A stretch of 64,000 bases of DNA from Gammaproteobacteria bacterium (GTDB taxonomy: Bacteria > Pseudomonadota > Gammaproteobacteria > Arenicellales > Poriferihabitantaceae): assembly GCA_028817405.1 (NCBI GenBank), contig JAPPPS010000105.1:6757-70756 (forward strand), given 5' to 3'. The translations under genes and the position numbers were made by a program. Numbering within the stretch: the first letter of the stretch is position 1; every line of letters starts with the position of its first letter. Shown here in pieces: positions 877 to 64,000 of this stretch. The notes beneath the pieces were generated by a model. That model had not been told where the DNA came from, searched no databases, and worked only from the letters and a program-made list of their open reading frames with translations.

Positions 877-2385
877 CTACTTCTTCCCCCGGCCCGAGCG
901 TTTCTTGGCGCGGCGTGGCGGGGCGGGCGCGGGGGCGAACGGGTTGTCGGCGTTGCGGGGGATGATGCGCACCGGGGTGCCGGTGAGGCGGAAGGCGCGG
1001 GCGAAGTGACGCGCCAGGTATCGGCGGTAGCCGGCCGAGAGTTTGCCGGCGAGGTTGCCGTGCACCACGATGACCGGCGGGTTTTTGCCGGATTGATGCG
1101 CGAACTTGAGGCGCACCGGGCGGCGTTTGTGCATTGGCGGCGGCGCGCGCGTCACCGCTTCTTGCAATGCGCGGTTGACCGGCGCGGTGGGCAAGTCGGC
1201 GAATGCGCCGTCAAAAGCGCGCAGCGCGGCCGGCATGATGCGGCCGAGGTTGGAGCCGCGCAGCGCCGAGACGAACAAGATTTCCGGATCCGGCAAAAAC
1301 GGCAGTTTGCGCTCCAATTCGCTTTCGATTTTGCGCCGCTGCCGGGCTTCCAAGCGGTCCCACTTGTTCACCACCACCACCAGCGACCTCCCCAAGTCGC
1401 GGATGATGCCGGCGATGGCGGCGTCTTGAAACCCGATTTCGCAAGTCGCGTCTAACACTAACAGCGCGACATTCGCGGCCTCGACCGCCTGCAATGCTTT
1501 GATGACCGAGAATTTCTCGACCGTCTCGCCGGCGCGCACGCGCGATTTTTTGCGCACGCCCGCGGTGTCGATGAGGATGCAGCGCCGGCCGTCGAATTCC
1601 ACCGGCACGCGCACGCTGTCGCGGGTGGTGCCGGGCGTGGCGCTGACCAGCAAGCGCGGCGCGCGCAGCAGGCGGTTGGCGAGGGTGGATTTGCCGGCGT
1701 TCGGCCGCCCGGCCAGTACGATGACCGGCCGGCCGGCATCGGCATCGGCATCGCCATCGCCATCGGCGGCCGCGGCATCCGCGTCCGCGGCGAATTCCCC
1801 GTCGTCCATGCCGCAACGCGCCAGCGCGGCCGCGAGCATTTCCGCCACCCCATCGCCGCGTTTGGCTGAGATGGCGAACGGCGCGCCCAGGCCTAATTCC
1901 TGAAACTCGGCCGCAGCCAACTCGGCCTCCACGCCTTCGCTTTTGTTCACCACCACCAGCACCCGCGCGCCGCTCGCCCGCAACCGCGCGCCGATGTCGC
2001 GGTCCGGCGCGACCAAGCCGTCCGCGGCGTCGACCATGAACAGCGTCACCTGCGCTTCGTCGATGGCGACTTCCACCTGCTCGCGAATCAACGCCGCGAA
2101 GGGATTCACGGTATCGGCATCACCGGCGGCAAAACCGTCACCGTCGCGGCCGAGAACCCCGCCGTCGCGGCCGAGAACCCCGTCGTCGCCGCCGCGGATG
2201 TCCTCCAACCCCCCGGTATCCACCGCCAAAAATTTCCGGCCGCCGAGTTGCCCGCGGCCGTACAGCCGGTCGCGGGTCACGCCCGGCTGGTCGTCGACAA
2301 TCGCATCGCGCGAGGCGGTCAGGCGGTTGAACAGCGTCGACTTGCCGACATTCGGCCGACCGACCAGGGCGAGCACCGGGAGCAT
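877..2385 (-). CDS. der: ribosome-associated GTPase Der (EngA), two tandem G domains
   Basis: Two P-loops, 'GRPNVGKSTLFNRL' and 'GRPNAGKSTLANRL', plus DTGG/DTAG and NKxD motifs and a KH-like C-terminus. Start set at MLPVLALVGRPNVGKS (ATG 2385); the ORF-track upstream extension is rejected. Confidence 0.95.
   Translation of the reverse strand: MLPVLALVGRPNVGKSTLFNRLTASRDAIVDDQPGVTRDRLYGRGQLGGRKFLAVDTGGLEDIRGGDDGVLGRDGGVLGRDGDGFAAGDADTVNPFAALIREQVEVAIDEAQVTLFMVDAADGLVAPDRDIGARLRASGARVLVVVNKSEGVEAELAAAEFQELGLGAPFAISAKRGDGVAEMLAAALARCGMDDGEFAADADAAAADGDGDADADAGRPVIVLAGRPNAGKSTLANRLLRAPRLLVSATPGTTRDSVRVPVEFDGRRCILIDTAGVRKKSRVRAGETVEKFSVIKALQAVEAANVALLVLDATCEIGFQDAAIAGIIRDLGRSLVVVVNKWDRLEARQRRKIESELERKLPFLPDPEILFVSALRGSNLGRIMPAALRAFDGAFADLPTAPVNRALQEAVTRAPPPMHKRRPVRLKFAHQSGKNPPVIVVHGNLAGKLSAGYRRYLARHFARAFRLTGTPVRIIPRNADNPFAPAPAPPRRAKKRSGRGKK
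2141..2182. repeat. perfect 21-bp tandem duplication inside der (encodes GVLGRDG x2)
   Basis: The unit ccgtcgcggccgagaaccccg occurs at 2141-2161 and again at 2162-2182. Confidence 0.9.
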
Positions 2386-2497
2386 TGGATGAGACGGTTC
2401 AACGGCCGCGGATGCAAAAACGGTAGCGGCGACAACAGCGATGACGGTGACGGCAAACCCGGCGACGGTGGCGGCGCAATAATGCAAACCGCGACGG

Positions 2498-3742
2498 TCA
2501 CTCGGCCGCGTGCAACGCCCACACGCTGAGGCGGCCGCCGGCCGAGAACACCGCGAACTGGCCCGGCCCCGCGGCCAGCGCCACCACCGCGCCGCCGCCC
2601 AAGTTGCGTTTTTCCAGCAGTTGGCCGTCGGCCGCGTCCAGCGCATACAGATTGCCGGCCGCGTCGCCGACCACCACCCGCGCGCCCCCGCCGACCACCA
2701 ACGGGCGGCTCATGCCGTGGCCGCGAAACCCCTCCTGCGTCCACAACACCTCGCCGCTGCCGGCGTCCAGCGCCACCACCGCGCCGAGGTCGGCGGTGAC
2801 CAACAGCCGCCCGCCGCCCAACGCCATCGGCAGCCGCGACGACACTTCGGCCTTCCACTGCAGCGCCGCATCCTGCAGGCGCAGCGCCGCGACATGGCCC
2901 TGGTAAGTGGCGATAAACAGCGTCGCGGCCGAGACCAGCGGCGCGCTGTCGGTGTCGGTCAGGCGCTCCAACTCGTTGCGCCCGCTGGCGAACGACACTT
3001 CGGTCTCCCAATACTCGCGCCCGGTGACCACGCTGTTGGCGACCAATTTGCCGCTTGCCAGGCCGGTGAAAACCGCGTCGCCGCTAATCAGCGGCGGGGA
3101 ATCGCCGTGGATGCTGAGCGCCGGCATGTCGCGCTCAAACGACCACACCGACTCGCCGGTGGCGGCGTCCAAGCCGGCCACCAAGCCGTCCGCGGTGCGC
3201 GCCACCACGCGCGAGATGCCGACCGCGGGAATGGCGGAAATCTGGCGGCCGAGCGGCGCCGCCCACAAGGTTTCGCCGCTCGCCGCGTCCAAGGCGATGA
3301 CGCGGCCGTCGTCCAGCGCCACCGCGACCACGCCGCCTTCGTCAACCGCGACCGCGCCGGCCATGGCGATGCCGACCCCGGAGAACACCGCCGCGCCCAA
3401 CTCCGATTCCAAGTCGCGCCGCCATTGGATTGCGCCGTCGGCCGGCGCGAGTTTGAACACGCTGCTGCGGCTGGCGACGTAGAGCGCGCCGCCGGCACCG
3501 TCGCGAACAACGCCACCGTCGCCGCCACCCCCATCACTGTAGGCCGGTTGCAGCAGCGCGTAACCGTCCTCGGGGCCGTCGCCCAAGTCGCGCCGCCACA
3601 GCATTTTCAACTCCGACAGGCCCGCGGCCCGCGGCAATTCCTGCGGCGCGACCGGCTCCTGGTAGGTGTCCCAGCGCGCCGCGCGCTCGCCGGCCTGGCA
3701 ACCCGCGAGTAGCAACCCGGCGACCGCCAACCACCGCTTCAC
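2498..3742 (-). CDS. bamB: outer-membrane assembly lipoprotein BamB (PQQ-like beta-propeller)
   Basis: Lipobox 'LLLAGC' in the signal peptide, repeated beta-propeller blades, and the conserved position between yfgM and der. Confidence 0.9.
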   Translation of the reverse strand: MKRWLAVAGLLLAGCQAGERAARWDTYQEPVAPQELPRAAGLSELKMLWRRDLGDGPEDGYALLQPAYSDGGGGDGGVVRDGAGGALYVASRSSVFKLAPADGAIQWRRDLESELGAAVFSGVGIAMAGAVAVDEGGVVAVALDDGRVIALDAASGETLWAAPLGRQISAIPAVGISRVVARTADGLVAGLDAATGESVWSFERDMPALSIHGDSPPLISGDAVFTGLASGKLVANSVVTGREYWETEVSFASGRNELERLTDTDSAPLVSAATLFIATYQGHVAALRLQDAALQWKAEVSSRLPMALGGGRLLVTADLGAVVALDAGSGEVLWTQEGFRGHGMSRPLVVGGGARVVVGDAAGNLYALDAADGQLLEKRNLGGGAVVALAAGPGQFAVFSAGGRLSVWALHAAE

Positions 3743-3743
3743 T

Positions 3744-8313: not shown

Positions 8314-8359
8314 GGCGGCGGCGACGGTGGTGGCGGCGAAAACGCGGGCGGCGCGCCGG

Positions 8360-8794: not shown

Positions 8795-8884
8795 GGTGGG
8801 CTCCGGGGATGCGTGGATGGCGGCGCGGCGGCCCGCGTTGCCGGGCGGCCCGCGCCCGTGGTGGCGGACGGAACAGGGGCGGCG

Positions 8885-8914
8885 ATTATAACCGTCAGGC
8901 GCGCTGCCGGGCAA
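8885..8914 (-). promoter_or_regulatory. candidate sigma70 promoter for ndk (-35 TTGCCC, 18-nt spacer, -10 TATAAT)
   Basis: A perfect TATAAT on the minus strand (plus-strand attata 8885-8890) lies immediately after the mtaB stop. A weak -35 sits at 8909-8914. A perfect -10 hexamer is conspicuous against this GC background. Confidence 0.35.
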
Positions 8915-10433
8915 TCAGCACGCCGTCGCCGAGCGCGGTGACTTCGACCGCGGCAAACTGGCCGCTCGGCGCCGGCGCGCGCGCGTCGAACAGCACCGGA
9001 AAATAGTCGGCGGCGCGGGCGCGGGTGGGGTGGCGCATGGCGGTGATTTCGGGCGCGGCGGCCGTGGCGACGCGGCCCTCGACCAACACTTCCAGCCGCG
9101 CGCCGATGCGCCGCTTGGCGACCCTTTCCCACACCGCCCGGCCCATCGCGCGCACTGCCGCGGCGCGCCGCTTGCGCTCGGCCGGCGGCACTTGGCGCGG
9201 CGGCGGAATGCGCGCCGCCGGGGTGCCGCGCCGCGGCGAATACGCAAACACATGCGGCCAGGCGATTTCCAAGTCGTCGACCGCGGCCAGGGTGCGGCGA
9301 AACTGCGCATCGGTCTCGGTGGGGAAGCCGACCAAGATGTCCGCGCTCAAGGTTAAATGCGGCGCGGCGCGGCGCAAGGCGGCGATGCGTTCATAAATCA
9401 TGTCGCGGTTGGCGCGGCGCCTCATGCGCTTGAGAATCAGCGTGTCGGCGCTTTGCAGCGAGAGGTGCAGTTGCGGGCAGAGCGCGCCGGCGGCGATGAG
9501 GTCGATGAGGGAGTCGGTGATGTGGGCCGGGTCGATGGAACTCAGGCGCAGGCGGACATCGCCGGCGATGGTTGCCAGGCGGCGCAGCAATGCGGCCAAG
9601 GGTTCGCCGCTGTCGGTGGGGAAATCCGCGCCAAAATCGTCGCCAAAATCATCGCCGTACGAGCCGACATCGACGCCGCAAATCACCACCTCGCGGAAGC
9701 CGTTCGCCGCCAACTTTTCCACTTGCGCGCATACCCTATCCGGCGGAAACGAGCGACTCGGCCCGCGCGCTTGGTGGATGATGCAAAAGGTGCAGCCGCG
9801 GTCGCAGCCCTGCTGCACCTGCACGAAGGCGCGCGCGCGGCCGTCAAAACCGCCGAGCAATTCGGACGGCAAACTGAGGTCACGGTCGAGCGCGGCGAAA
9901 TCGTCGACCACAACTTTCGGCACGCTTGGCGGCAACTCGCCGGTCGATTCGCCGGACAATTCGCCGGCTGATTCACCGGCCAATTCACCGGCGCCGGCGA
10001 GCAACGGGCGCAATAACGCCGGGATATCGAGTTTGCGCGCGTTGCCGACGACCGCGTCGACGCCGGGAATGGCGGCGCAGGCGGCCGCGTCCATCTGCGC
10101 GTAGCAGCCGGTGACCACGATGCGCGCAGATGGATGGCGGCGAATCGCGCGGCGCACCAACTGCCGCGCCTGGCGGTCGGCGGCGGCGGTGACGGTGCAG
10201 GTGTTAATCAGGCAGAGGTCGGCCGCGGCATGCGCGTCGACGCGGCGGTGGCCCTGGCGGCTGAGTTGCTGCGCGAGATGCTCCGACTCGAAACTGTTGA
10301 CCTTGCAGCCGAGGGTGAAAATGGCGAACCGCTTGGGGGCGGCGACGGTGGTGGCAGTGGCATCGGCGGCGGCCGGCGCGACGGTTGATTCCGGCGACGG
10401 CCGCAACAGCGGATTAACGGCGACGGAAACCAT
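8895..10433 (-). CDS. mtaB: radical-SAM methylthiotransferase, MtaB-like (MiaB/RimO family)
   Basis: N-terminal '[13 protein letters not shown]' (MtaB-type UPF0004 domain), radical SAM 'CDRGCTFC' and a TRAM-like C-terminus. In-frame repeats [20 protein letters not shown] and [12 protein letters not shown]. Confidence 0.85.
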
Positions 10434-10549
10434 CGTCTCAAACGGTGGGTACGGCGGCGATGCGCACGGCGGCGGGCGCGACGGTGGCGACGGTGGCGGG
10501 CGCGACCGCCAGAGCCGCGGCGGTGAATGCGGCGACCGGGCGCGGTCCC

Positions 10550-11016: not shown

Positions 11017-11448
11017 ATGCCGTTTTATGAATACCGCTGCGAATCTTGCGGCCATGAGTTGGAGGCGCTGCAGAAAATCGCCGATGCGCCGCTGGTTTAT
11101 TGCCCGGAATGCGGCGAGGCGCGGCTGAAAAAGTTGGTGTCGAAGTCGGCGTTTCGCCTGAAAGGCGGCGGCTGGTATGCGACCGACTTCAAGCACAGCG
11201 GCGCGCGGCCGGGCAAGGATGGCGCGTCCAAAGACGACTCCAAGGACGGCGACTCGGCGCACGCCGGCGGTAAAGGCGGCGACGGTGATGGCGACGGTAA
11301 AAGCGGCGGTGGCGGCGACGGTAAAACCGGCGACGGTGGCGGCGACGGTCGCGGCGGTAAAACCGGCGGCGACGGTGGCAGCGACGGTGGTGGCGGCAAA
11401 ACCGCGGGGCAGTCGACGGCCGCGGAGAAGTTGCAAAAAAGCGCGTGA
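11017..11448 (+). CDS. FmdB-family zinc-ribbon protein with a Gly/Asp-rich C-terminal tail
   Basis: 'MPFYEYRCESCGHELEALQ...YCPECG' CxxC...CxxC ribbon. ATG at 11017. The tail GDGDGDGKSGGGGDGKTGDGGGDG is encoded by a GGCGAC/GGTGAC array. Confidence 0.85.
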   Translation: MPFYEYRCESCGHELEALQKIADAPLVYCPECGEARLKKLVSKSAFRLKGGGWYATDFKHSGARPGKDGASKDDSKDGDSAHAGGKGGDGDGDGKSGGGGDGKTGDGGGDGRGGKTGGDGGSDGGGGKTAGQSTAAEKLQKSA

Positions 11449-11570
11449 CGCGGCGCGCTGAATCGTCCAAATTACCGTCGCGCCACCGCTGAACCTTTAC
11501 CTTAGCTTTCGCCAACAGCCGCCACCGTCGCCATCAAGCGTCGCCGCCCTACCCTATTTCCGCCCCCGCC

Positions 11571-13373
11571 ATGCGCACCCATTTAAGCGGCCAATTGCGC
11601 CGCGCCGACATCGGCCAGCGCGTCTCGCTGGCCGGCTGGGTGTTGAACCGCCGCGACCACGGCGGGGTGATTTTCATCGACTTGCGCGACCGCAGCGGCG
11701 TGGTGCAGGTGGTCGCGGACCCGGACGCGCCGGGGCCGTTTGCGGTGGCCGACAAGGCGCGCGCCGAGTTCGTGCTGCGCGTGGAAGGCGCGGTGCGCGC
11801 GCGGCCGGACGGCACCGTCAACCCCGACTTGCCGAGCGGCGACATCGAGGTGGCGGCGCAAACCATCGAGTTGCTGAACCGCGCCGAGCCGCTGCCGTTT
11901 CAAATCGACGACGAGGATTTGAGCGAGGCGACGCGCCTGAAATACCGCTTCCTGGACCTGCGCCGCGCGCCGATGCAAACCGCGCTGCGCCTGCGCCACC
12001 GCGTGGTCAGCGCCATCCGCGGCTTCCTCGACGCGCGCGATTTTGTCGACATCGAAACGCCGGTTCTCACCCGCTCCACCCCCGAAGGCGCGCGCGATTA
12101 TTTGGTGCCGAGCCGCACCCATCCCGGCGCGTTTTTCGCGCTGCCGCAGTCGCCGCAGTTGTTCAAGCAACTCCTGATGGTCGGCGGCTTCGAGCGCTAT
12201 TACCAAATCGCGCGCTGCTTCCGCGACGAAGACTTGCGCGCCGACCGCCAGCCGGAATTCACCCAGTTGGATGTCGAGATGGCGTTCGTCGACGAGGCCG
12301 AAGTGATGGCGTTGATGGAGGAGATGCTGCGCGAGGTTTTTGAACTCGCGGCCGGCGTCGAGTTGCCTGCGCCGTTGCCGCGCATGACTTGCGCCGAGGC
12401 GCTGGCGCGATACGGCAGCGACCGCCCGGACTTGCGCGTGGATTTGGAATTGACCGAGTTGACCGACTTGATGACGACGGTGGAGTTCAAGGTGTTCTCG
12501 GGCCCGGCCAGCGACCCGACCGGGCGCGTGGCGGCGTTGCGCGTGCCGGGCGGCGGGGCTGACGGTGGCGACGGTGGCGCCGGCATCTCGCGCGCGCAAA
12601 TCGACCACTACACCGAATTCGTCGGCCGCTTCGGCGCCAAGGGCTTGGCGTATATCAAAGTGGGCGACGCATCGGCCGGGCGCGACGGCTTGCAATCGCC
12701 GATTCTGAAATTCCTGCCGGACCAAGTGCTGGCGCAAATCCTCGAGCGCAGCGGCGCGGCCAACGGCGATTTAATCTTCTTCGGCGCGGACAAAGCGGCG
12801 GTGGTGAACGCCGCGCTCGGCGCGTTGCGGGTGGAAATCGGCCGCGACTTGTCGCTCGCCGCGCCGGGCTGGCGGCCGCTGTGGGTGGTGGACTTCCCGC
12901 TGTTGGCGTGGAACGAAGATGCGAAGCGGTTTGAAGCGCAGCACCACCCGTTCACCGCGCCGCGCGCGGCCGACATCGAGGACTTGGAAAGCGCGCCCGA
13001 GCGGGTACTGTCGCGCGCCTACGACTTGGTTTTGAACGGCGTGGAAATCGGCGGCGGCTCGATTCGCATCCACCAAGCCGAGTTGCAGCAGCGCGTCCTG
13101 GCAACGCTCGGCATCGACGCGGCGCAGGCGCGCGCGCAGTTCGGCTTTCTGCTCGACGCGCTGCAATACGGCGCGCCGCCGCACGGCGGCATCGCTTTCG
13201 GCATCGACCGCATCGCCGCCATGTTGGCCGGCGCCGACTCCATCCGCGATGTCATCGCCTTCCCCAAAACCCAAAGCGCATCGTGCCTGCTCACCGAAGC
13301 CCCGGGCGCCGTCGACGCCGGGCAATTGCGGGAGTTGGGGTTGCGGGCGGCGAAAACGCGGACCGGGAAATGA
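11571..13373 (+). CDS. aspS: aspartate--tRNA ligase
   Basis: 600 aa. OB-fold N-terminus '[22 protein letters not shown]', '[18 protein letters not shown]' and the 'GGGSIRIH' class II motif 3 region. Confidence 0.97.
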
Positions 13374-18223: not shown

Positions 18224-18263
18224 TGATGTTTTGTCAAGCGTTTTTTAACCGCCACTCCGGCGA

Positions 18264-25389: not shown

Positions 25390-26229
25390 ATGAAAGTGCA
25401 CCAACAACCGGCGTACTTGCTGCGCGCGCGGCCGTTCGCCGAGAGCAGTTTGATGGTGGATTTGTTCACGCGCGAACACGGCCGCCTGACGGTGCTCGCC
25501 AAAGGCGCGCGGCGCGGCAAGTCGCGGGTGCGCGGCGTGCTGCTGCCGTTCCTGCCGCTGTTAGTGAGTTGGAGCGGCAAGGGACAGTTGCCGACGCTGA
25601 CTTCGGTGGAAACTCGCGCGGCCGGCCCGGCCGGCGACGGCGCGACGGTGAACGGCGCGACGGTAAATAACTCGACGGTGAGCGGCGGCGCGATGAAAGG
25701 CGAAACCTTGGCCAGCGGTTTTTACCTGAATGAATTGCTGCTGCTGTTGCTGCACCGTCACGACGCGCATGAGGCGTTGTTCGAGCATTACCACGACGCG
25801 GTCGCGCAACTCGCGGCCGCGCCGTCGCCGCGCCAGGTGCTGCATGCGTTGCGCGTGTTCGAGAAACATTTTCTTCGCCACATCGGTTTCGGCGCGATGT
25901 TCGACCGCGACGCCGACACCGGCCAAGCCATCGACGCGCAAGGGCAATACCGTTATCTGCCGGAGCGCGGCCCGGTGCGCGCGCGCGCATCGCATGAGGC
26001 GGATGCGGTGGCTGAGACCGATGCGTTGCCGGTCAGCGGCCGCACTTTGCATGCGCTGCGCGACGAAGACTTCCGGTCCGATGTCGAGTTGCGCGAGGCG
26101 CAGCGGTTGACGCGCGCGCTGATTGAGCGTCAGTTAGGCGGCCGCCAGTTGCGCTCGCGGCGGGTGCTGCGGGAGATGAGTCGCTACGGTGGCGGCAACG
26201 GTGGCGGCGGCGGCAACGGTGGCGGTTGA
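25390..26229 (+). CDS. recO: DNA repair protein RecO
   Basis: 'AYLLRARPFAESSLMVDLFTREHGRLTVLAKGARR' OB-fold N-terminus at the era-recO synteny position. Carries internal GATVN-type repeats and a GGGNGGGGGNGGG tail. Confidence 0.9.
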   Translation: MKVHQQPAYLLRARPFAESSLMVDLFTREHGRLTVLAKGARRGKSRVRGVLLPFLPLLVSWSGKGQLPTLTSVETRAAGPAGDGATVNGATVNNSTVSGGAMKGETLASGFYLNELLLLLLHRHDAHEALFEHYHDAVAQLAAAPSPRQVLHALRVFEKHFLRHIGFGAMFDRDADTGQAIDAQGQYRYLPERGPVRARASHEADAVAETDALPVSGRTLHALRDEDFRSDVELREAQRLTRALIERQLGGRQLRSRRVLREMSRYGGGNGGGGGNGGG

Positions 26230-26383: not shown

Positions 26384-27814
26384 CTACAAAAACAACCGCC
26401 GCACATCGGCGAACGCGCGCGCCAGATACGCGGCGAAGCGCGCCGCCGCCGCGCCGTCGATGGCGCGGTGGTCGTACGACAAATCCAGCGGCAGCATCAA
26501 GCGCGGTTGAAACTTCTCGCCGTCCCACACCGGCGTCATGCGCGCGCGGGTGATGCCGAGGATGGCGACTTCCGGGGCGTTGACAATCGGCGTGAACGCG
26601 GCCCCGCCGATGCCGCCGATGCTGGAGATGGTCATGCAGCCGCCGCGCATCTCCTCGGCTTTCAGCCGCCCGGCGCGCGCGCGTTCGCTCAACTCGGCCA
26701 TCTCCGCGGCCAACTCGAACAGCCGCTTGCGCTCCGCATCCCGGATGACCGGCACCACCAAGCCGTGCGGGGTGTCCACGGCGATGCCGATGTTGCAGTA
26801 TTTTTTGACGATGAGATGCGCGCCGTCGGGGTGCAATGAGGCGTTGAAAGCGGGGAACTCGGCAAGCGCGCGCGCCAGGATTTTCACCGCGAAGCCGAGC
26901 ACGGTGACGCGCACCCCGGCCTTCTCGGCCTCGCCTTTCAGCGACCGGCGGAACGCCTCCAAGTCGGTGATGTCGGCGTCCTCGTGGTGCGTGACATGCG
27001 GGATGTTGAGCCACGCGCGCTGCAAGTGCGGGCCGGACAACTTGGCGATGCGCGACAACTTCTGCAGTTCCACCGCGCCGAACTGGCTGAAATCGACTTC
27101 CGGAATCGGCGGAATGCCGCCGCCGGCCGGCCCCGGCCCCGGCGCGCCCGGCGCGCCCGGCGCGCCGCCGAGCGACTCCCGCACCCACGATTTAACATCG
27201 TCCTCGACGATGCGCCCTTTGCCGCCGCTGCCGTGAATCTGCGCCAGCGGCGCGCCCAATTCGCGGGCGAAACGGCGCACCCCCGGGCTGGCATGCGGCG
27301 GCGCGACCCCGGCGCGCTCGACCGGCGGCGGTAGCGTCGGCGGCGGACGGTGGGAATCGGCGGACGATTTTTCCGGCGACGGTTGCGGTGACGGTGCCGC
27401 CGCCGACGGTGCTGGCGTCGATGCGGCATCGGCGGTCGGCAGTGATTCCGCCGCCGGCGATTCGGGTTGCGCCGGCGGCTGCGACGGTTGCGGCGACGGT
27501 GCCGCCGTGTCCTCAGCCGGCGCGGCCCCGGCATCGGTCGTGTCCTCAGCTGGCGCGGCCCCGGCATCGGCCGGCCCCGCCCCCTCCGCCAACACCGCCA
27601 CCGGCGTCCCCTGCGCCACCATTTCCCCGACCGCCACGCGCAACTCGGTGATGACGCCGGCGCACGGCGCGGGAATATCCATGGTCGCTTTGTCGCTTTC
27701 CAGCGTGACCAGCGGGTCTTCCGCGGCCACCGTCTGCCCGGCGCTGACCAGCACCTCGATGACTTCGACTGCGTCGAAATCACCGATGTCCGGCACTGTT
27801 ATTTCGGTCGGCAT
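26384..27814 (-). CDS. aceF: pyruvate dehydrogenase E2, dihydrolipoyllysine acetyltransferase (single lipoyl domain)
   Basis: Lipoyl site 'LESDKATMDIPAP', Ala/Pro linkers, an E3-binding domain and the catalytic 'DHRAIDGA' motif. Confidence 0.95.
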   Translation of the reverse strand: MPTEITVPDIGDFDAVEVIEVLVSAGQTVAAEDPLVTLESDKATMDIPAPCAGVITELRVAVGEMVAQGTPVAVLAEGAGPADAGAAPAEDTTDAGAAPAEDTAAPSPQPSQPPAQPESPAAESLPTADAASTPAPSAAAPSPQPSPEKSSADSHRPPPTLPPPVERAGVAPPHASPGVRRFARELGAPLAQIHGSGGKGRIVEDDVKSWVRESLGGAPGAPGAPGPGPAGGGIPPIPEVDFSQFGAVELQKLSRIAKLSGPHLQRAWLNIPHVTHHEDADITDLEAFRRSLKGEAEKAGVRVTVLGFAVKILARALAEFPAFNASLHPDGAHLIVKKYCNIGIAVDTPHGLVVPVIRDAERKRLFELAAEMAELSERARAGRLKAEEMRGGCMTISSIGGIGGAAFTPIVNAPEVAILGITRARMTPVWDGEKFQPRLMLPLDLSYDHRAIDGAAAARFAAYLARAFADVRRLFL

Positions 27815-31025: not shown

Positions 31026-31048
31026 GTTATCCAATGCAGTAGATGCGT

Positions 31049-33917: not shown

Positions 33918-35366
33918 TTATGCGGCCGCGGTCGCGGTGATGGCCTCCATGGCGCGCAGAAAAACCGCGACTTCATCGGCCGAGTTGTAGTGCGCCAGCG
34001 ACACGCGCACGCAGGTTTCCAAGCCCAGCGGGTCCAGGATGTTGGCGGAAAAATAGTCGTTTTTGCGGGTGTGGACGCGCACCCCGCGGTCGCCGAGTTG
34101 GCGCACCACTGTCGCCGCCGGCGCGCCGTCCACCGCCAGCGACACCAAGCCCTCGCGGCGCGGATTGGCGGCGCCGCCGATGACGGTGACGCCGGGCATG
34201 GTCGCCAAACCGCGCCGCCCGCCGCCGCCGTTCAGCATGCAGTCCACCAGGTGTTTTTCATGCGCGGCGATGGCGCGGCCGGCGGCGACGATGCGCGCGC
34301 GGCGGCTCGCCGCGGCGGCGTCGACTTGCCCGCCCAACCAGTCGAGGTAATCCACCACCGCGCTGAAACTGGCGTACGCCGCGGCGTCGCGGGTGCCGAG
34401 TTCCCAGAAGTCGTCCGCGGTGCCGTCGAGATGCTCGTGCGGCGCGCGACTCAAGCGCGGCGACAACCACGCGAAACCGTAGTTGTGGCGCGAAAAAACC
34501 TTGTAGCCGGAGACCGCGTACGCGTCCGCGTCGATGCCGGCGGCCGCGACCCCGCCGTGCGGCGCGTGCTGGATGCCGTCGACGATGATGAAACACTCCG
34601 GCGATGCCGCGCGAATTTCCGCCGCCACCGCCGCGACATCCACCGCCATGCCGCTCACCGGGCTGGTGTGGATGACGGTGGCGACCCGGGTGTCGGCGAA
34701 ACCGTCGCCCAAGCGCGCGCGGTAGGCGGCGGCGTCGACGCTGCCGGTGCGCGGGTCGTGGGCGACGGCGGTGTAGCGCGCGCCGACATGCGCGGCCCAG
34801 CGGCGGGCCGCGCTGGCGGTGGCCGGGTGTTCCAGGGTGGAGCCGAGGACTTGCCATTTTTTGCCGTGCTCACCGTCGCGGCCCCGGCCCCGGTCGCGGG
34901 CGGCGGCGGCCAACACCGCGGCGCGGATGACCCGGAACAAACATTCGGTGCCGGATTCGCCGACGAAGATGACACCGTCGCCGGGGTCACCGTCACCGCC
35001 CCCGCTTAACGGACTGCGGGGGTGACGAGGGGGGGCATCACCGCCCCCGCTTAACGGACTGCGGGGGTGACGAGGGGGAGCATCACCGTCACCATCACCG
35101 TCACCGTCGCCGCCGACACCGAGGAAAGTCGCCATATCGGCCCGCCCGCGCGCAATCAACCGCCCCATTTCGGCCGAGGCCGGGTTGTCGCGCCCTTGGT
35201 TATCCGGAATCGCCGCCAACTTTGCCGCGACCTCGACCACCGATTTCAGCGTCAGCGAGCCGCCGGCGTTCTCGAAGAAAATCCGCGGGCCCTGGTACGG
35301 ACAACGCTCGACATGATGAAACCGCGCGCGAATTTCCTGCAGCAACTGGGCGTCGAACGCGCTCAT
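33918..35366 (-). CDS. class-V aminotransferase-fold PLP enzyme, cysteine desulfurase/desulfinase-like
   Basis: 'FFENAGGSLTLKSVVE' and the PLP-lysine region 'SGYKVF'. The ATG at 35366 overlaps the tctA TGA (ATGA). Interrupted in frame by the palindromic element at 34981-35110. Confidence 0.8.
   Translation of the reverse strand: MSAFDAQLLQEIRARFHHVERCPYQGPRIFFENAGGSLTLKSVVEVAAKLAAIPDNQGRDNPASAEMGRLIARGRADMATFLGVGGDGDGDGDGDAPPRHPRSPLSGGGDAPPRHPRSPLSGGGDGDPGDGVIFVGESGTECLFRVIRAAVLAAAARDRGRGRDGEHGKKWQVLGSTLEHPATASAARRWAAHVGARYTAVAHDPRTGSVDAAAYRARLGDGFADTRVATVIHTSPVSGMAVDVAAVAAEIRAASPECFIIVDGIQHAPHGGVAAAGIDADAYAVSGYKVFSRHNYGFAWLSPRLSRAPHEHLDGTADDFWELGTRDAAAYASFSAVVDYLDWLGGQVDAAAASRRARIVAAGRAIAAHEKHLVDCMLNGGGGRRGLATMPGVTVIGGAANPRREGLVSLAVDGAPAATVVRQLGDRGVRVHTRKNDYFSANILDPLGLETCVRVSLAHYNSADEVAVFLRAMEAITATAAA
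34999..35078 (+). repeat. two tandem 45-bp copies of the palindromic element CCCCCGCTTAACGGACTGCGGGGG-TGACGAGGGGG
   Basis: Identical hairpins at 34999-35022 and 35044-35067 (7-bp GC stems, 10-nt loop). Each is followed by TGACGAGGGGG and flanked by GTCACC arrays. Read in frame on the minus strand as DAPPRHPRSPLSGGG x2. Confidence 0.9.
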
Positions 35367-36887: not shown

Positions 36888-37661
36888 TTATTGCAGAATC
36901 GTTACCAAGCCGGTACCGATTTCATAAAACGGACTCACATTGCCGGTCGGCAAGCCGACATACAACACGCTGACGAACAGCAGCAGCAGCACGCCGAGAA
37001 TCACCGCGGCCACCAACGCCATCGGGCCGCCGCGCCGCTCGCCCAACAAAAACATCACCGCCAGAATAAAAAACGGCGCCAGCGCATAAAAGCCGAAGTC
37101 CTGCATGAACGCGGCGAACAACACCGGCAACGCCAACATCGCGCCGACGCGGTTGGCGCGCGCGCCGAGCAAGTAAAGCGCGATGACGGCGGCGGCGGTG
37201 GTTAACTTGACGGTGTGCAGCGCGCCGCTTTGCTCGGCCGTCAACCAACCCGGCAGCAACAGATACAAAAACGGTAGCGCGAGAATGCCGAAGGTCGAGG
37301 CGTACCATTTAACGCCGGCCATGCCGTCCGCGCCGGTGTGATGCGATTCACGCGCCGCGGTCTCGGCGCCGTCATCCGAGGCCGCCGCCAACATATCGCG
37401 CGCGCGCGCGGCGGTTTCACCGTCGCCACCGTCACCGTCACCGTCACCATCGCCGCCGCGCCGGTCGACTTTCCAGTGATAAAGCAGTTGCCCGACCGCG
37501 GCCACGGCAATCAACAGCAGCACCGCGCGCGGCCACGCCGAGGCGCCGAACCGGTAGATTTCGATTGCCTTGTCGAAACGAAACGAATAGGCGTACAACA
37601 ACCCGGCCAACGCCAGCCACAGCGCGGCCTCGACCAGATGACCGGTTTTTAAGTTGCCCAT
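36888..37661 (-). CDS. tctB: TctB-like small permease, enlarged by a hydrophilic Gly/Asp-rich insert
   Basis: Lies between tctC and tctA and has multiple TM helices. ATG at 37661. Insert '[24 protein letters not shown]...HHTGADG' at nt about 37325-37469. Confidence 0.7.
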   Translation of the reverse strand: MGNLKTGHLVEAALWLALAGLLYAYSFRFDKAIEIYRFGASAWPRAVLLLIAVAAVGQLLYHWKVDRRGGDGDGDGDGGDGETAARARDMLAAASDDGAETAARESHHTGADGMAGVKWYASTFGILALPFLYLLLPGWLTAEQSGALHTVKLTTAAAVIALYLLGARANRVGAMLALPVLFAAFMQDFGFYALAPFFILAVMFLLGERRGGPMALVAAVILGVLLLLFVSVLYVGLPTGNVSPFYEIGTGLVTILQ

Positions 37662-44416: not shown

Positions 44417-44500
44417 GGCGACGGTGATGGTGACGGTGACGGTGGCGGTGACGGCGATGCCCCCCTCGTCACCCCCGCAGTCAGTTAAGCGGGGGCGGGG
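44417..44500 (-). repeat. intergenic composite: GGTGAC/GGCGAT array plus one inverted copy of the palindromic element
   Basis: Array at 44417-44460. CCCCCTCGTCA follows at 44461-44471, then the hairpin cccccgcagtcagttaagcggggg at 44472-44495. This matches the reverse complement of the 34999 copy with 1 loop mismatch. Confidence 0.9.
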
Positions 44501-44502
44501 AT

Positions 44503-46240: not shown

Positions 46241-46343
46241 TGGCGATGGCGGTGACGGTGATGACGGTGGTGACGGTGATGACGGTGGTGACGGTGATGA
46301 CGGTGCTGGCGGCGATGACGGTGATGACGGTGCTGGCGGCGAC
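46241..46343 (+). repeat. intergenic nested tandem array of GGTGAC/GGTGAT units
   Basis: gtgacggtgatgacggtg (18 bp) occurs three times at 46252-46305. It is followed by ctggcggcgatgacggtgatgacggtg (27 bp) and a partial second copy. Confidence 0.9.
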
Positions 46344-46620: not shown

Positions 46621-46670
46621 GCGTCGGTTGCGGTCGGTTGCGCGCTGGCGCGCGGTGATGGAAATCTCGG

Positions 46671-46730
46671 ACTCTACGCGCAATCTGCGCGCATTGCAAA
46701 CCCGCGGCGCGCATTGCAAACCCGCGGCGC
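46671..46730 (-). promoter_or_regulatory. candidate infA promoter (-35 TTGCAA, 17-nt spacer, -10 TAGAGT) embedded in a 20-bp tandem duplication
   Basis: On the minus strand, TAGAGT is plus-strand actcta at 46671-46676 and TTGCAA lies at 46694-46699. The unit gcgcgcattgcaaacccgcg occurs at 46687-46706 and 46707-46726, which creates a second TTGCAA at 46714-46719. Confidence 0.4.
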
Positions 46731-46745
46731 GCGATGGGGCCGCGG

Positions 46746-48991: not shown

Positions 48992-49103
48992 CAGCCGGAG
49001 TCCAGAGTTTTTTTACTTCTGGCCGGGCCAATTAAAGCCAAAGCCTGCCCGCCCACGAGCGGGGACTCTGGATGCCCGCTCAACAGACTGCGAGCGTGAC
49101 GGC
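48992..49103 (+). repeat. REP/MITE-like palindromic element, long form (about 110 bp)
   Basis: Terminal arms ggagtccagagt (48997-49008) and actctggatgcc (49065-49076), with an internal cccgc/gcggg stem. The 3' module cccgctcaacagactgcgagcgTGACGG has a loop matching 8/10 with the loop of the CCCCCGC...GCGGGGG element. Confidence 0.6.
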
Positions 49104-55195: not shown

Positions 55196-55200
55196 ACGCC

Positions 55201-55262
55201 GTCACCGTCACTTTCACCGTCACCGTCACTTTCACCGTCGCCGTCGCCGCCATCATCGTCAT
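55201..55262 (+). repeat. intergenic GTCACC-type array between the TRAP permease and binding-protein genes
   Basis: gtcaccgtcactttcacc (18 bp) occurs at 55201-55218 and 55219-55236. A degenerate gtcgccgtcgccgccatcatcgtcatc follows. Confidence 0.9.
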
Positions 55263-55304
55263 CGAACAGTTCAACTTTGTCTCACCATTCACCGGAGAAT
55301 CGTC

Positions 55305-56415: not shown

Positions 56416-57171
56416 TTACAACCGTCGCAGTCGGTACACTTTTTCGTTCAACGAATCCAGGCCGCGGTCGGCGAGGTTGCCGACGATGTCGGGGCCGGAT
56501 GACTGGGTGATGATGTCGATGGCGAAGTCGGCGGCGAACAACCGTCGCACTTCCGCTTCCGGCACCGAGAACGGGGGGCCTTTCATTTGGCGCTCATCGT
56601 AGTCCATGCTGATGAGAAAGACTTGCGCGCGCGGTTGCAGCAGCGCGGCGAGATGCGCGGCGTAGTCGCCGCGCATCGGTTGCGGCAGCGCAATCAACGC
56701 GGCGCGGTCGTAAACCAAGCGCGCGCGCTCCAAGTCGCCGGGTCGCAAGTCAAACCAATCGCCGCACCATAACTCGATGTCGATGCCGGTGCTTTCGATG
56801 TTGCCGTCACCGTCGTCACCGTCGCCCCCGCTTAACAGAACGCGGGGGTGACGGGGATGAGTGTCGTCGCCACCGTCGCCAACATAACGCGCAAACCGCG
56901 CACCGTCGATAACTTCATAACGCAACCCGTTCTCGGCGAAGAAGTCGCGGCAGGCGACGGCGCTGACTTCCACGCCGATGACATGGTGGCCGGCACGCGC
57001 CAACCACAGCAGGTCCAGCGACTTGCCGCATAACGGCGCCAACACCGTCGCGCCTGGTTCCGCCTCCGCCGCAAACGCGCGCCAGAATTTCTTCAGCCGC
57101 GAGTTAACCTTGACTTGATGAAACCCCAGCCGCCGCTCGGCCCACCGTTGATGCCAGAAGTCGATGTCCAT
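56416..57171 (-). CDS. tpm: thiopurine S-methyltransferase (Tpm) carrying an in-frame palindromic-element insert
   Basis: 'FWHQRWAERRLGFHQ', 'VLAPLCGKSLDLLWLARAGHHVIGVEVS'. Insert 'DDTHPRHPRVLLSGGDGDDGDG'. Confidence 0.88.
   Translation of the reverse strand: MDIDFWHQRWAERRLGFHQVKVNSRLKKFWRAFAAEAEPGATVLAPLCGKSLDLLWLARAGHHVIGVEVSAVACRDFFAENGLRYEVIDGARFARYVGDGGDDTHPRHPRVLLSGGDGDDGDGNIESTGIDIELWCGDWFDLRPGDLERARLVYDRAALIALPQPMRGDYAAHLAALLQPRAQVFLISMDYDERQMKGPPFSVPEAEVRRLFAADFAIDIITQSSGPDIVGNLADRGLDSLNEKVYRLRRL
56801..56880 (+). repeat. palindromic element copy (cccccgcttaacagaacgcggggg-TGACGGGGA) with a flanking GTCACC array, inside tpm
   Basis: Hairpin at 56825-56848 with the same 7-bp stems as the 34999 copy; the loop differs at 3 positions. 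Preceded by gtcaccgtcgtcaccgtcg. Confidence 0.9.
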
Positions 57172-62692: not shown

Positions 62693-63727
62693 TCAATCCA
62701 ACTTCAAATTATCAATCAGCCGCACTTTGCCGATGGTGGCGGCGATTAGGGCGCGGGCTTGGGGGGGCGGGGCCGGCGGGGGGTGTTCGCTCCAGTTGGC
62801 GGGGTCGCGGACGGTGGCGTAGTCGAGGGCGATTTGCGGGTGTTGCAGGCGGGCGCGCATGACGGATTCGAGGGCGGCGGGGGCGCGCGCGCCGGATTGC
62901 CATGCCGCTTTCGCCGCGAGTAGCGCTTGATAAATTTGCGCCGCGGCGTCGCGCCCGGCGGCGTTCAGGCGGCGGTTGCGCGACGACAATGCCAGGCCGG
63001 AGGCGTCGCGCACGGTCGGGCAGACGCGCACTTCGATGCCGCTGAAGCGCCGCGCGAGGTGCGCGACCACGAGGGTTTGCTGGAAGTCCTTCTCGCCGAA
63101 ATAGGCGCGGCAGGGGCCGACCGTGGCGAACAACCGCGCGACGATGCGGCACACGCCTTGCAGGTGGCCGGGGCGGAATTCGCCTTCCAAGCCGCGCGCG
63201 CCGGGGCCGGGGTCGATGGCGGCGGCGGAGTCCAGCGCGCCGGGGGCGGGGTCGATGGCGGCGCTTGCGTCAGCGCCGGAGTCCAGCGCGCCGGGGCCGG
63301 GGTCGATGGTGGCGGCGGAGTCCAGCGCGCCGGGGCCCACGCCAGAATCCGGGCCGGGGTCGACGCTACCGTCGATGTCGCCACCGCCGCCACCGTCGCC
63401 ACCGTCGCCGCCTGCGCCATCCGCGTCCGGGAAAAATTCCGCCGGCGTGCCGGTGAAAACCATCGCGCAGCCGGCGCGGTTGAGCAGGGCGGTGTCGCGT
63501 TGCCAGTCGCGCGGGTAGTCGCGCAGGTCGGCGCGGTCGTTGAACTGCAAGGGGTTGACGAAAATGCTGGCGCAGGCGGCGGCGTTCTCGCGCACCGCGC
63601 GCTCCACCAGCGATAGGTGGCCGGCGTGCAGCGCGCCCATGGTGGGGACATAGCCGAGCGTCACGCCGCGCGCGCGTTGTTCAGCGCACCATTTCGATGC
63701 GCGTTGCGGCGACGGCAGTTCAATCAT
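62693..63727 (-). CDS. panC: pantoate--beta-alanine ligase with an insert of about 85 aa built from tandem repeats
   Basis: 'GYVPTMGALHAGHLSL', 'SIFVNPLQF', 'FRPGHLQGV'. Insert spans nt about 63150-63420. Confidence 0.92.
   Translation of the reverse strand: MIELPSPQRASKWCAEQRARGVTLGYVPTMGALHAGHLSLVERAVRENAAACASIFVNPLQFNDRADLRDYPRDWQRDTALLNRAGCAMVFTGTPAEFFPDADGAGGDGGDGGGGGDIDGSVDPGPDSGVGPGALDSAATIDPGPGALDSGADASAAIDPAPGALDSAAAIDPGPGARGLEGEFRPGHLQGVCRIVARLFATVGPCRAYFGEKDFQQTLVVAHLARRFSGIEVRVCPTVRDASGLALSSRNRRLNAAGRDAAAQIYQALLAAKAAWQSGARAPAALESVMRARLQHPQIALDYATVRDPANWSEHPPPAPPPQARALIAATIGKVRLIDNLKLD
63197..63340. repeat. 39/51/39-bp tandem repeats inside panC (encode IDPGPGALDSxA units)
   Basis: Units at 63197-63235, 63236-63286 (with 12 extra nt) and 63287-63325, then a partial fourth copy. 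Each contains ggagtccagcg, an 11-mer also present in the left arm of the 18264 element. Confidence 0.85.
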
Positions 63728-64000
63728 CGAGTCACGGTGTTGCGGCCGGTACCGTCACGGTCACGGTCACGGTCACCGTCACCGGCATCGTCACCGGCAC
63801 CGCGGTCACCACCGTCACCACCGTCACCGACATCGCCACCGTCACCGGCATCGACATCGCCGGCGACACCGTCACCGTCATCACAACCATCGCCGCGGCC
63901 GGCATCTTCGCCGAGTCCACCGTCACCGTCGCCCCCACCCGCATCCAACCACCGCCCGATATCCTCGACGCTGCCGACCACCGCGCTCGCGCCCCAGTCG
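63724..64000 (-). CDS. 3' end of an unidentified upstream gene (panB/folK position) with a Gly/Asp-rich tail of about 75 aa
   Basis: The frame stays open to the window edge (...DWGASAVVGSVEDIGRWLDAGGGDGDG...). Its TGA overlaps the panC ATG (ATGA at 63724-63727). The tail is encoded by a GTCACC array at 63735-63960. Confidence 0.5.
   Translation of the reverse strand, partial: DWGASAVVGSVEDIGRWLDAGGGDGDGGLGEDAGRGDGCDDGDGVAGDVDAGDGGDVGDGGDGGDRGAGDDAGDGDRDRDRDGTGRNTVTR

Follow-up and report, generated by a model that had tools for sequence, protein, structure and literature searches.

Arrays of GGTGAC-type hexamers are scattered through genes and spacers of the window, i.e., the whole 64-kb stretch of DNA that was analysed. 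These arrays were probably born in place, change in length and are sorted by selection according to what they encode; the probability of this reading was estimated at roughly 0.6. The arrays are genuine, and their abundance is far above chance. The window contained 16 exact (GGYGAY)≥2 arrays (0.25/kb), as compared with 14 such arrays per 509 kb (0.028/kb) in proteobacterial loci with a GC content above 0.62. The overall tandem-repeat density was 0.58/kb versus a median of 0 across 37 GC-rich loci. Arrays were detected with TRF and exact regular-expression scans, with an extension allowing one mismatch, and the census covered approximately 82 kb of one genome and orthologous regions. The units were arranged head to tail, with 2-5 exact GGYGAY units per array and longer runs when one mismatch was allowed. 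The core unit was GGTGAC/GGYGAY, and its derivatives had periods of 9, 12 and 42 nt, all multiples of three. The nine coding and four spacer arrays listed in the first-pass annotation of this DNA were all recovered at or near their positions. The following arrays, two of which (in aspS and TPMT) had been overlooked there, were located in or across genes.

1738..1767, minus strand: GCCGAT/GGCGAT array in the inter-domain linker of der, read ADGDGDADAD; 6 nt shorter in a relative with 95% identity
7744..7872, minus strand: rlmN insert of ~40 aa, ending in GDGDGD preceded by a twice-repeated peptide; splits the radical-SAM domain; orthologues are without it
11266..11400, plus strand: G/D/K-rich C-terminal tail of the FmdB-type Zn-ribbon protein; 6- and 12-nt indels in the relative
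12549..12583, plus strand: weaker Gly-Asp array of aspS, (GGCGACGGT)n; 9-nt indel versus the relative
26187..26226, plus strand: C-terminal tail of recO, (GGCGGCGGCAACGGTGGC)2, read GGGNGGGGGNGGG, i.e., Gly/Asn and not Gly/Asp
27375..27398, plus strand (gene on the minus strand): imperfect G-strand array antisense to the linker of the E2 acyltransferase, read PSPQPSP
34974..35120, minus strand: insert in the PLP (Aminotran_5) enzyme, consisting of (GD)5, two 45-nt palindromic units and then GDGD
37416..37460, minus strand: loop array of tctB; 6 nt shorter in lineage L118 and absent in L117
48136..48255, plus strand: rsmD insert splitting the methyltransferase domain; 131, 143, 122, 134 or 137 nt depending on the strain
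56791..56883, minus strand: TPMT insert of GD units and one palindromic unit (56819-56865 on the plus strand), read GDGGDDTHPRHPRVLLSGGDGDDGDG
63194..63430, minus strand: panC insert of ~78 aa, with the G/D part (63377-63400) being GDGGGGGD, followed by GPGALDSAA-type repeats
63727..63945, minus strand: G/D-rich C-terminal tail of ~70 aa of a HAD hydrolase, whose stop codon overlaps the panC start (ATGA)

Gene identities were obtained from Pfam and from the genes called on public contigs of nearly the same sequence (der, rlmN, FmdB-type Zn ribbon, recO, Aminotran_5 PLP enzyme, tctB, rsmD and panC); in an exact look-up, ccmB, a methyltransferase, erpA and infA were matched and panC gave no match. 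As the first-pass annotation had noted, the hosts lie on both strands (fmdB, rsmD and recO on the plus strand; der, rlmN, the PLP enzyme, tctB, TPMT, panC and HAD on the minus strand). Of the ~56 genes, 17 contained a G/D-rich tract of 6 aa or more, frequently in housekeeping enzymes, and the inserts interrupt Pfam domains in rlmN, rsmD, panC and TPMT. The tracts are presumably translated, as their reading frames suggest. In the AlphaFold model of TPMT, residues 101-128 had a pLDDT below 50 and formed a loop joining two strands, the remaining fold being confident; the insert is thus modelled as a disordered loop.

All 17 overlapping 12-mer hits inside genes of the window were on the sense strand in codon phase 0, which reads Gly-Asp. 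Codon shuffling predicted 1.0 hit in the Gly-Asp frame (1.04, a value itself inflated by the array codons), 0.35 in the sense Val/Ala-Thr frame and 0.68 in the antisense Val/Ile-Ala/Thr frame. Since proto-arrays of the Val-Thr type are expected about as often as Gly-Asp ones and none has expanded, selective filtering is needed. Weak antisense matches (16/18) in bamB, secA, tctC, pmbA, sleB, ftsY and panC were ordinary Val/Ile-Ala/Thr codons and not arrays. Additionally, GGT made up 44% of the Gly codons within G/D tracts versus 8% elsewhere, and therefore the repeat is a DNA-level unit and not a protein-level preference.

The first-pass annotation had stated that every in-gene array is read from the sense strand as Gly-Asp and that no other reading survives in proteins. 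All of the 12-mers agreed with the former statement; the recO tail, however, is Gly/Asn, the der tract is chiefly GCC-GAT (Ala-Asp) with two Gly-Asp units, and the E2 linker is read from an opposite-strand array. The latter statement did not hold. Opposite-strand arrays survive with a Ser-Pro reading in the E2 linker and at the ends of two proteins encoded in the 10 kb that follow (the N-terminus of SufS and the C-terminus of EamA), and the E2 array is itself length-polymorphic, with 33- and 12-nt indels in a relative. In a 78%-identical relative, (CGTCAC)2-3 within the PLP enzyme is read as Arg-His. No VTVT, SPSP or HRHR peptide was present in the window proteome. The HAD tail is in the Gly-Asp frame, as set by the upstream domain and the ATGA overlap with panC; GC3-based gene picking put the tail at 63732-63998 in a Val-Thr frame, which was excluded once HAD was called as a gene and its stop was seen to overlap the panC start. 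The GTG-ACG frame is rich in G and C at third codon positions, and for this reason gene callers place spurious Val-Thr mini-ORFs over the arrays; a census based on annotation would therefore mislead.

The first-pass annotation had proposed comparisons between strains and with orthologues. Orthologous arrays in three lineages differed in length by 3-27 nt (3, 6, 9, 12, 18 or 27 nt) with their orientation kept, and the rsmD array differed by 6 nt within the species (L112). Whole units were gained or lost between strains and lineages, in genes and spacers alike. With respect to the 95% relative, 20 of 24 indels were multiples of three; all four exceptions lay in spacers, several of the indels were within arrays, and the pattern in L118 was the same. 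Orthologues with at most 80% identity were without arrays, and the RlmN, TPMT, PLP enzyme and TctB orthologues lacked the inserts. The nearest GTDB relative (L001) carried other in-frame hexamers that encode Gln-Thr, Glu-Ala or Ser-rich tracts, one of them in the very RlmN loop that bears the insert here; this suggests a lineage-wide propensity to form repeats. The host lineage is uncultured and known from metagenome assemblies only; some sample labels suggest sponges.

Between genes, the following arrays were found.

2400..2470, plus strand: G-rich motif in the der-bamB spacer; the sense strand of the flanking minus-strand genes carries CCACCGTCGCC / GCCGTCACCGTCATCGC
8314..8337, plus strand: array in the rlmN-ndk spacer abutting the rlmN ATG; C-rich on the gene sense strand
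10440..10510, plus strand: array in the erpA-miaB-like spacer; sense strand CCACCGTCGCCACCGTCGC; 18 nt longer in the relative
44417..44458, plus strand: array abutting the tldD ATG; tldD sense strand (GTCACC)n; 86, 98 or 104 nt depending on the lineage
46241..46343, plus strand: 9-nt-period array (GGTGATGAC)n in the infA / sleB-like spacer; C-rich on the gene sense strand
55199..55262, minus strand: dctM-dctP intercistronic array; sense (plus) strand GTCACCGTCACTTTCACC...; 6 nt shorter in the relative

The infA/sleB-like array is situated upstream of a promoter-like site, TTGCAT-17-TATGGT, and the rlmN-ndk spacer of the 95% relative contains an additional 99 nt of GGTGAC-type array. For the four intergenic arrays listed in the first-pass annotation, the flanking genes indeed have GTCACC on their sense strand. 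Its generalisation that arrays between genes face the opposite way was extended to five further spacers (2386-2497, 8314-8359, 8795-8894, 11449-11570 and the one upstream of lepA) and met at least one exception in the next 10 kb of the genome, where the spacer array at 13710-13839 of L101 is oriented oppositely. At 45436-45537, the sense strand of the spacer has a G-rich 9-mer of another kind. Nearly all spacer motif counts were antisense. On independent loci, the C-rich strand was the sense strand in 10 of 12 motif-bearing spacers (p ~0.04), and the bias is only suggestive on this basis. Just beyond the window, a sense-oriented spacer array is in phase with the next gene, of which it is a possible Gly-Asp extension; together with the FmdB and HAD tails, this agrees with the earlier proposal that sense arrays near gene ends become Gly-Asp tails.

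The C-rich sense of the spacer arrays matches the leaders of this host, which are C-rich, G-poor and poor in Shine-Dalgarno motifs: fully intergenic leaders (n = 34) contained 41.8% C and 24.5% G, and a Shine-Dalgarno-like motif was present in 9 of 55 genes. The orientation bias could merely repeat the C-skew of the leaders, to which the arrays themselves add. A replication-strand cause of the orientation was rejected, as the arrays flip with gene direction and the window has no skew switch.

A 45-nt palindromic unit, which the first-pass annotation had overlooked, is embedded in arrays at three loci: the PLP enzyme, TPMT and the region upstream of tldD. In the PLP enzyme its cores occupy 34999-35033 and 35044-35078 on the plus strand. 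Two spacer copies are as follows.

44459..44502, minus strand: 45-nt palindromic unit CCCCCGCTTAACTGACTGCGGGGGTGACGAGGGGGG upstream of the tldD array; conserved in all lineages
49075..49102, plus strand: degenerate palindromic copy GCCCGCTCAACAGACTGCGAGCGTGACGG between the convergent coaD and FGGY genes

Four close copies were present in the window at three loci, three of the four inside genes, and diverged copies were found at 49075 and in L101. Palindromic copies were not obtained in 100 shuffles of the sequence. In the PLP enzyme and TPMT, the unit is translated as PRHPR(S/V)(P/L)LSGG, a peptide that orthologues with at most 80% identity lack. A role as an intrinsic terminator was rejected because no T-run follows the palindrome.

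It is proposed that G-rich repeats whose period is divisible by three would arise in place and change in length via slippage or unequal recombination, slippage being the probable mutational mechanism, and that the 45-nt unit in some arrays would be amplified in tandem with them. Within folded domains, only the sense Gly-Asp frame would persist, where it may form a small, acidic, disordered surface loop; the disfavoured frames would introduce a TGA stop, a hydrophobic and beta-branched Val-Thr repeat or a highly basic His-Arg repeat. Arrays of the reverse orientation would persist as well where they encode Ser-Pro stretches of linkers and protein termini. The orientation favoured in untranslated spacers would be the C-rich one, from which start codons, stop codons and GGUGA Shine-Dalgarno-like motifs are absent. 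Selection on peptide properties and translation signals would accordingly cause the sorting, but the argument from spurious initiation is weakened by the fact that sense arrays in genes are tolerated despite their GGUGA and GUG motifs. The idea of the first-pass annotation, an expanding microsatellite filtered by selection, is in line with the DNA-level unit, the whole-unit length changes and the lack of Val-Thr expansion; it did not take account of the palindromic unit.

A possible but doubtful alternative is that the arrays belong to, or were left behind by, a small mobile element that is palindromic and MITE- or RPE-like and that would be inserted or copied into new loci together with its GTCACC/GGTGAC flanks. 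The frame and orientation of in-gene arrays would then reflect the open frames of the unit. Of its six frames, two are open, one on the top strand and the Gly-Asp frame on the bottom strand, and it is the latter that occurs at both in-gene loci. The 35-nt core is nearly identical at three unrelated loci and always within arrays, the diverged spacer copies have a conserved loop, TTAAC(A/G/T)GA(C/A)(T/C), with one compensatory change in the stem, and the PLP site of the 78% relative contains just a GGTGAC/GTCACC palindrome. Furthermore, a GGT-rich unit common to unrelated loci is not predicted by purely local birth from native GGC-GAC codons, and therefore some exchange between loci, or element-like spread, is implied. 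However, the majority of arrays (those of der, rlmN, fmdB, tctB, rsmD, panC and HAD and of most spacers) lack the palindromic unit in every lineage examined. The three sites are orthologous and occupied in the 95-96% lineages, and only the tandem copy number varies, from 1 to 5 between strains (1, 2, ~4 or 5 in TPMT; 1 or 2 in the PLP enzyme). Neither terminal inverted repeats, target-site duplications nor a transposase were found, and no empty sites were seen in these lineages. A scan of JGI metagenome contigs with the exact hairpin pattern CCCCCGCTTAACNNNNNGCGGGGG returned two unrelated matches and no further copies. There was no Rfam match at gathering thresholds, with chance-level hits only at E<1, and the 49-aa insert peptide had no match at E<=0.001 among 5.8 billion proteins, probably owing to composition filtering.

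That the Gly-Asp tracts are themselves selected for as protein features (e.g., because they bind cations, aid solubility or make the surface acidic for life in the sea or in a host) appears very unlikely. The tracts are always acidic, are kept at orthologous sites in the 95-96% lineages and recur in the 17 genes mentioned above, frequently of housekeeping enzymes; nevertheless, the overuse of a rare GGT codon indicates DNA-level copying, length and exact sequence drift freely among strains, and the host proteins are unrelated and the loops non-homologous. The different tracts of the closest GTDB relative and the low model confidence of the TPMT insert, with no defined structure, also argue against it. 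RTX repeats were not detected: the period is two residues, (GD)n, with no 9-residue GGxGxDxUx motif in the tracts and no RTX/HemolysinCabind domain by Pfam. It is similarly improbable that there is no filtering and that native Gly-Asp codons in loops, or C-rich leaders, seed the arrays and fix frame and strand at birth. Orthologous loops are Gly-rich (GGGG or NAGGD in TPMT, GA-GEG in the PLP enzyme) and leaders are generally C-rich, but the summed shuffle seeds of the two alternative frames approximate those of Gly-Asp with none expanded, and native Gly codons are overwhelmingly GGC, whereas the arrays are GGT-rich.

Selective sorting of locally born arrays is the preferred reading, and the phenomenon is a variant of coding microsatellites and in-frame palindromic repeats, both already known. 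Tri- and hexanucleotide repeats are enriched in coding sequences of prokaryotes (genomes of 117,861 organisms; PMC12699852). The arrays likewise consist of head-to-tail, frame-preserving units that are multiples of three, enriched in coding sequences and variable in length between strains by whole units, with DNA-level identity beyond codon usage. They differ in their density, with about a fifth of genes affected, including core housekeeping enzymes; in one GGT-rich unit common to many loci, with the palindromic unit physically linked; and in strict frame sorting in domains with reverse orientation in spacers. They do not behave as a phase-variable locus, as the units (6, 9, 12, 42 and 45 nt) and every in-gene indel were multiples of three. 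Rickettsia palindromic elements (RPEs) are dispersed palindromic repeats of ~150 nt lying in-frame in genes (PMC10969869). Like RPEs and intragenic MITEs (ERIC etc.), the palindrome is dispersed in-frame in unrelated metabolic genes, and like RPEs it encodes a conserved peptide, is missing from orthologues and is compatible with the host fold. Unlike RPEs, the unit is 45 nt versus ~100-150 nt, is tandemly amplified and always lies within hexamer arrays; no similarity to RPEs or any Rfam family and no new insertion sites between lineages were found, and the host is a GC-rich gammaproteobacterium, not Rickettsia. REP/BIME elements, which go with a RAYT transposase gene, are strictly extragenic, in contrast to the in-gene copies described here.

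In Plasmodium and Dictyostelium, repeat expansion driven by base composition gives rise to non-globular inserts that are tolerated at the surface of conserved housekeeping enzymes. The present inserts are alike as tolerated non-globular loops, but those are eukaryotic, AT-rich and Asn/Lys-rich, and these are bacterial, GC-rich and Gly/Asp-rich with a defined hexamer. Mycobacterial MIRUs, with units of 40-100 nt, lie between the genes of operons and are uniformly oriented with respect to transcription; in some, a small ORF overlaps the stop codon on one side and the start codon on the other. PGRS repeats (CGGCGGCAA) encode Gly-Gly-Asn/Ala and are limited to a dedicated gene family (PE_PGRS). 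The pgsA-DAO2 array resembles MIRUs with such ORFs, the suggestive orientation bias of the spacers may recall that of MIRUs, and the recO tail recalls the PE_PGRS reading. However, units of 6-12 nt in ordinary genes and spacers are unlike both. Searches of plasmids with megablast/blastn gave nothing relevant, and literature searches (accessions, hexanucleotide repeats, low-complexity sequence in sponge symbionts) did not retrieve any account of it.

The arrays make an unusually clear case, yet one with precedent, of the probable sorting of a microsatellite by selection. The arrays provide a natural experiment on which frames proteins tolerate: Gly-Asp in domains, Ser-Pro only in linkers and at termini, and Val-Thr and His-Arg almost never. 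They also widen the range of in-frame palindromic "selfish" repeats, so far a feature of Rickettsia, to a GC-rich lineage that is uncultured. It is unlikely that the arrays and the 45-nt unit together form a self-propagating coding module, a counterpart of the RPEs, that would spread between arrays by recombination, be read in one frame as disordered loops of enzymes and supply a C-rich, unstructured, Shine-Dalgarno-independent leader in a host largely without Shine-Dalgarno-led initiation. As regards translation in this host, its C-rich, Shine-Dalgarno-poor leaders may outweigh the arrays in importance.

An exact scan of the window, whose G+C content is 65.5%, detected 16 arrays with two or more GGYGAY units. 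This corresponds to 0.25 arrays per kb; 36 further proteobacterial loci whose G+C exceeds 0.62 had 0.028 per kb. The exact (GGTGAC)2 sequence was found five times in the window and in none of 80 comparison loci. Tandem Repeats Finder, together with a scan that tolerated mismatches, widened these exact arrays to the tracts listed in the first-pass annotation. Gene models were based on Pfam hits and on the genes called in near-identical public contigs. Both sources agreed with the earlier gene names der, rlmN, FmdB-type, recO, class-V PLP enzyme, tctB, rsmD and panC. The region at 63735-63960, described previously as a tail, encodes the last ~70 residues of a HAD hydrolase; because the stop codon of this gene overlaps the panC start, the Gly-Asp frame of the tail is fixed. 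The earlier list lacked an array in TPMT (56791-56883), as well as a weaker aspS array. The census covered about 82 kb of one genome together with orthologous regions.

Within genes, all 17 overlapping (GGYGAY)2 hits lay on the sense strand in codon phase 0 (Gly-Asp), whereas within-gene codon shuffling predicted approximately 1.0 hit for Gly-Asp, 0.35 for sense Val/Ala-Thr and 0.68 for antisense Val/Ile-Ala/Thr. No VTVT, SPSP or HRHR peptides were present among the window's proteins. Since the host genes are located on both strands and base skew revealed no replication-strand switch, array orientation follows the gene. Two details of the first-pass annotation were incorrect: the recO tract encodes Gly/Asn, and the der tract mostly Ala-Asp.

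The coding density of the window is approximately 95%. Nine spacers between co-directional genes carried the motif, almost wholly on the antisense strand.

Examples of motif counts in these spacers, strand against strand
8314-8359: 7 against 0
10434-10549: 8 against 1
44417-44502: 8 against 1
46138-46745: 17 against 2
55196-55304: 0 against 5 (genes on the + strand)

In the spacer at 45436-45537, the sense strand contained a G-rich 9-mer that differs from this motif. The antisense spacer motif matches a general C-rich property of leaders: the sense strand of 34 fully intergenic leaders contained 41.8% C and 24.5% G, and a Shine-Dalgarno-like motif was found within 30 nt upstream of the start in only 9 of 55 genes. 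Such C-rich, G-poor leaders are unusual for a gammaproteobacterium and suggest that initiation is largely independent of Shine-Dalgarno pairing. Many starts were preceded by ...ACC ATG. The leaders surveyed include those at 8314-8343 (rlmN) and 46621-46650 (infA). Upstream of the infA gene (46402-46620, - strand), which the first-pass annotation does not mention, a 20-nt sequence is perfectly repeated in tandem (GCGCGCATTGCAAACCCGCG x2.3) at 46687-46732.

Flanking DNA of the same genome, reached by look-ups with the edge genes, served as a held-out test. The 7.9 kb on the right (L093) contained nothing new, and the 10 kb on the left (L101) violated both the frame rule and the spacer-orientation rule. 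A C-orientation array encodes the SufS N-terminus, MPPVAQPSPSSPPPSPSSPSSSPPSP. This array is predicted to be translated as Ser-Pro, since no in-frame start codon is present downstream of it and homology to solved SufS structures starts at F27. The C-terminal tail of EamA, rich in Ser-Pro, likewise derives from a C-orientation array. Inside the window, the linker of the E2 acyltransferase contains an imperfect, length-polymorphic opposite-strand array read PSPQPSP, and in the PLP enzyme of a 78% relative GGTGACGGTGGTGACGGTGAG is followed by CGTCACCGTCAC, read Arg-His. The claim that Gly-Asp is the only surviving reading was therefore contradicted. On the sense strand of the pgsA-DAO2 spacer in the left flank, the array is in the G orientation. 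The opposite orientation was seen at 10 of 12 spacer loci, which is a statistically modest bias. Read as Gly-Asp, the pgsA-DAO2 array is in phase with the start of DAO2; a gene caller made it into a Val-Thr ORF of 44 residues whose start and stop codons overlap the neighbouring genes. Public gene calls place Val-Thr-repeat "proteins" of 44 to 65 residues over spacer arrays (L101:13706-13840, and L107:10184-10381 and L108:1170-1310 on other public contigs). They are probably artefactual, a product of the high GC3 in the GTG-ACG frame. The L101 ORF, whose start and stop overlap the neighbouring genes, could be real.

A 45-nt palindromic unit that the first-pass annotation lacks, CCCCCGCTTAACNGACTGCGGGGGTGACGAGGGGG, was present in two tandem copies inside the PLP gene and one upstream of tldD, with a variant inside the TPMT gene; every copy was embedded in hexamer arrays, and a degenerate copy was located at 49075-49102. 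In genes it reads D(A/T)(P/H)PRHPR(S/V)(P/L)LSGG; it has only two open frames out of six, one of them being the Gly-Asp frame. TPMT alleles carried 1, 2, about 4 or 5 units, those of the five-copy allele being clean 45-nt repeats. The PLP enzyme has two units in the window and one in relatives at 95-97% identity, and the site upstream of tldD was occupied in all lineages. Variants in the spacer left of the window have the stem GCCCGC/GCGGGC, an identical TTAACAGACT loop and one compensatory pair. The hairpin folded significantly better than shuffles for the TPMT copy only (z = -3.6). No matching family was found in Rfam, and no further palindrome copies in an exact-pattern scan of JGI metagenomes. 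The 49-aa insert peptide gave no match at E<=0.001 among 5.8 billion proteins, probably owing to composition filtering.

A second dispersed repeat, GGAATCCAGAGTCTTTA, occurred in four or five copies, one inverted, in the efp-eamA spacer (L101:17204-17962). Two inverted hairpin variants, GCCCGC-TTAACAGACT-GCGGGC, separated by ~550 nt, flanked it in the manner of the termini of a composite MITE-like element. Within the window, a related motif, CCGGAGTCCAGCGTCTTTG, was present between secA and argJ (compare 18224-18322).

The repeat unit belongs to the DNA level, and mutation adds or removes whole units. GGT accounted for 44% of Gly codons inside the Gly/Asp tracts and for 8% outside. Comparison with a 95%-identical relative revealed 24 indels, several of them within arrays; 20 had lengths divisible by three, and the other four were all located in spacers. 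The rlmN-ndk spacer of this relative contained a new 99-nt GGTGAC-type array, and a second relative showed the same indel pattern. Orthologous arrays across three lineages kept their orientation and varied in length. Within the species (>99% identity), arrays were mostly stable.

Lengths of orthologous arrays in different lineages or strains
Array upstream of tldD: 86, 98, 104 nt
Array upstream of the sleB-like gene: 136, 109, 133 nt
rsmD insert: 131, 143, 122, 134, 137 nt
dctM-dctP spacer array: 109, 103 nt

The most labile repeat seen was a 12/24-nt repeat in the miaB-like gene (9933-9992), with a 12-nt difference even between 99.8%-identical strains. The nnr gene (60488) showed an in-frame 39-nt indel polymorphism within the species (497 or 510 aa), which is not a hexamer array.

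The Gly/Asp tracts are inserts in loops. They interrupt Pfam domains in rlmN, rsmD, panC and TPMT, and were not present in RlmN, TPMT, the PLP enzyme and TctB of more distant relatives. In the AlphaFold model of TPMT (mean pLDDT 77.7), insert residues 101-128 form a loop between two strands at pLDDT below 50. To judge from sequence, the tracts would be translated.

The best reading of these data is a microsatellite sorted by selection, a weaker form of the filtering originally proposed. On this reading, Gly-Asp alone persists within folded domains, and Ser-Pro in linkers and termini. Untranslated spacers retain the C-rich orientation, which contains neither start nor stop codons and no GGUGA motif there and fits the C-rich leaders. 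The codon-shuffle result argues against a frame set purely at the birth of each array. A purely adaptive role of acidic loops is unlikely because the tracts drift freely and the sister lineage has different ones. Two features, the GGT-rich unit common to the loci and the palindrome with its dispersed copies, speak for some exchange between loci. This leaves room for an element-like component, improbable as it appears.

Prokaryotic coding regions are enriched in tri- and hexanucleotide repeats (PMC12699852), and in-frame palindromic repeats in metabolic genes are a hallmark of Rickettsia palindromic elements (RPEs), occurring sporadically for ERIC and other MITEs (PMC10969869). The present case behaves like RPEs, but does not match them in size, sequence or transposition evidence. 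A likeness to MIRUs would lie in the orientation bias only, and PE_PGRS repeats resemble the recO tail only. Coding microsatellites and in-frame palindromic repeats are the known kinds closest to the present case.

A strain-level presence/absence difference was also seen. A CRISPR-Cas locus (Cas1, Cas2, Cas4 and a 1356-aa Csx12-like protein; L108:17434-20219 and L118:1-5496, contigs of 95% relatives) adjoins tauE-tctCBA, where the window has an M48 peptidase gene. Four DNA methyltransferase genes occurred in the 64 kb (34-867, 13370-14632, 29030-31034), one fused to an HNH nuclease domain; this HNH-methylase (13370-14632) was missing from the 95% relative.

Among GTDB species representatives, RlmN identity to the closest genome was only 66-69%. 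The window had a tandem-repeat density of 0.58 per kb, whereas the median for 37 GC-rich loci was 0. The closest relative, a sea-cave MAG (L001), was richer still at 1.05 per kb, but with other hexamers (in-frame arrays at L001:1217-1253 and 3445-3587). Its RlmN contains (GCAAAC)n, n=6, read Gln-Thr, at the loop that holds the Gly-Asp array in the window, and its YfgM contains (GAAGCC)n, n=8, read Glu-Ala, followed by D-rich 21/42-nt repeats. Because both the window and this relative are repeat-rich with different hexamers, in-frame repeat expansion seems to be a general tendency of the clade, with GGTGAC as the dominant unit of the window's species.
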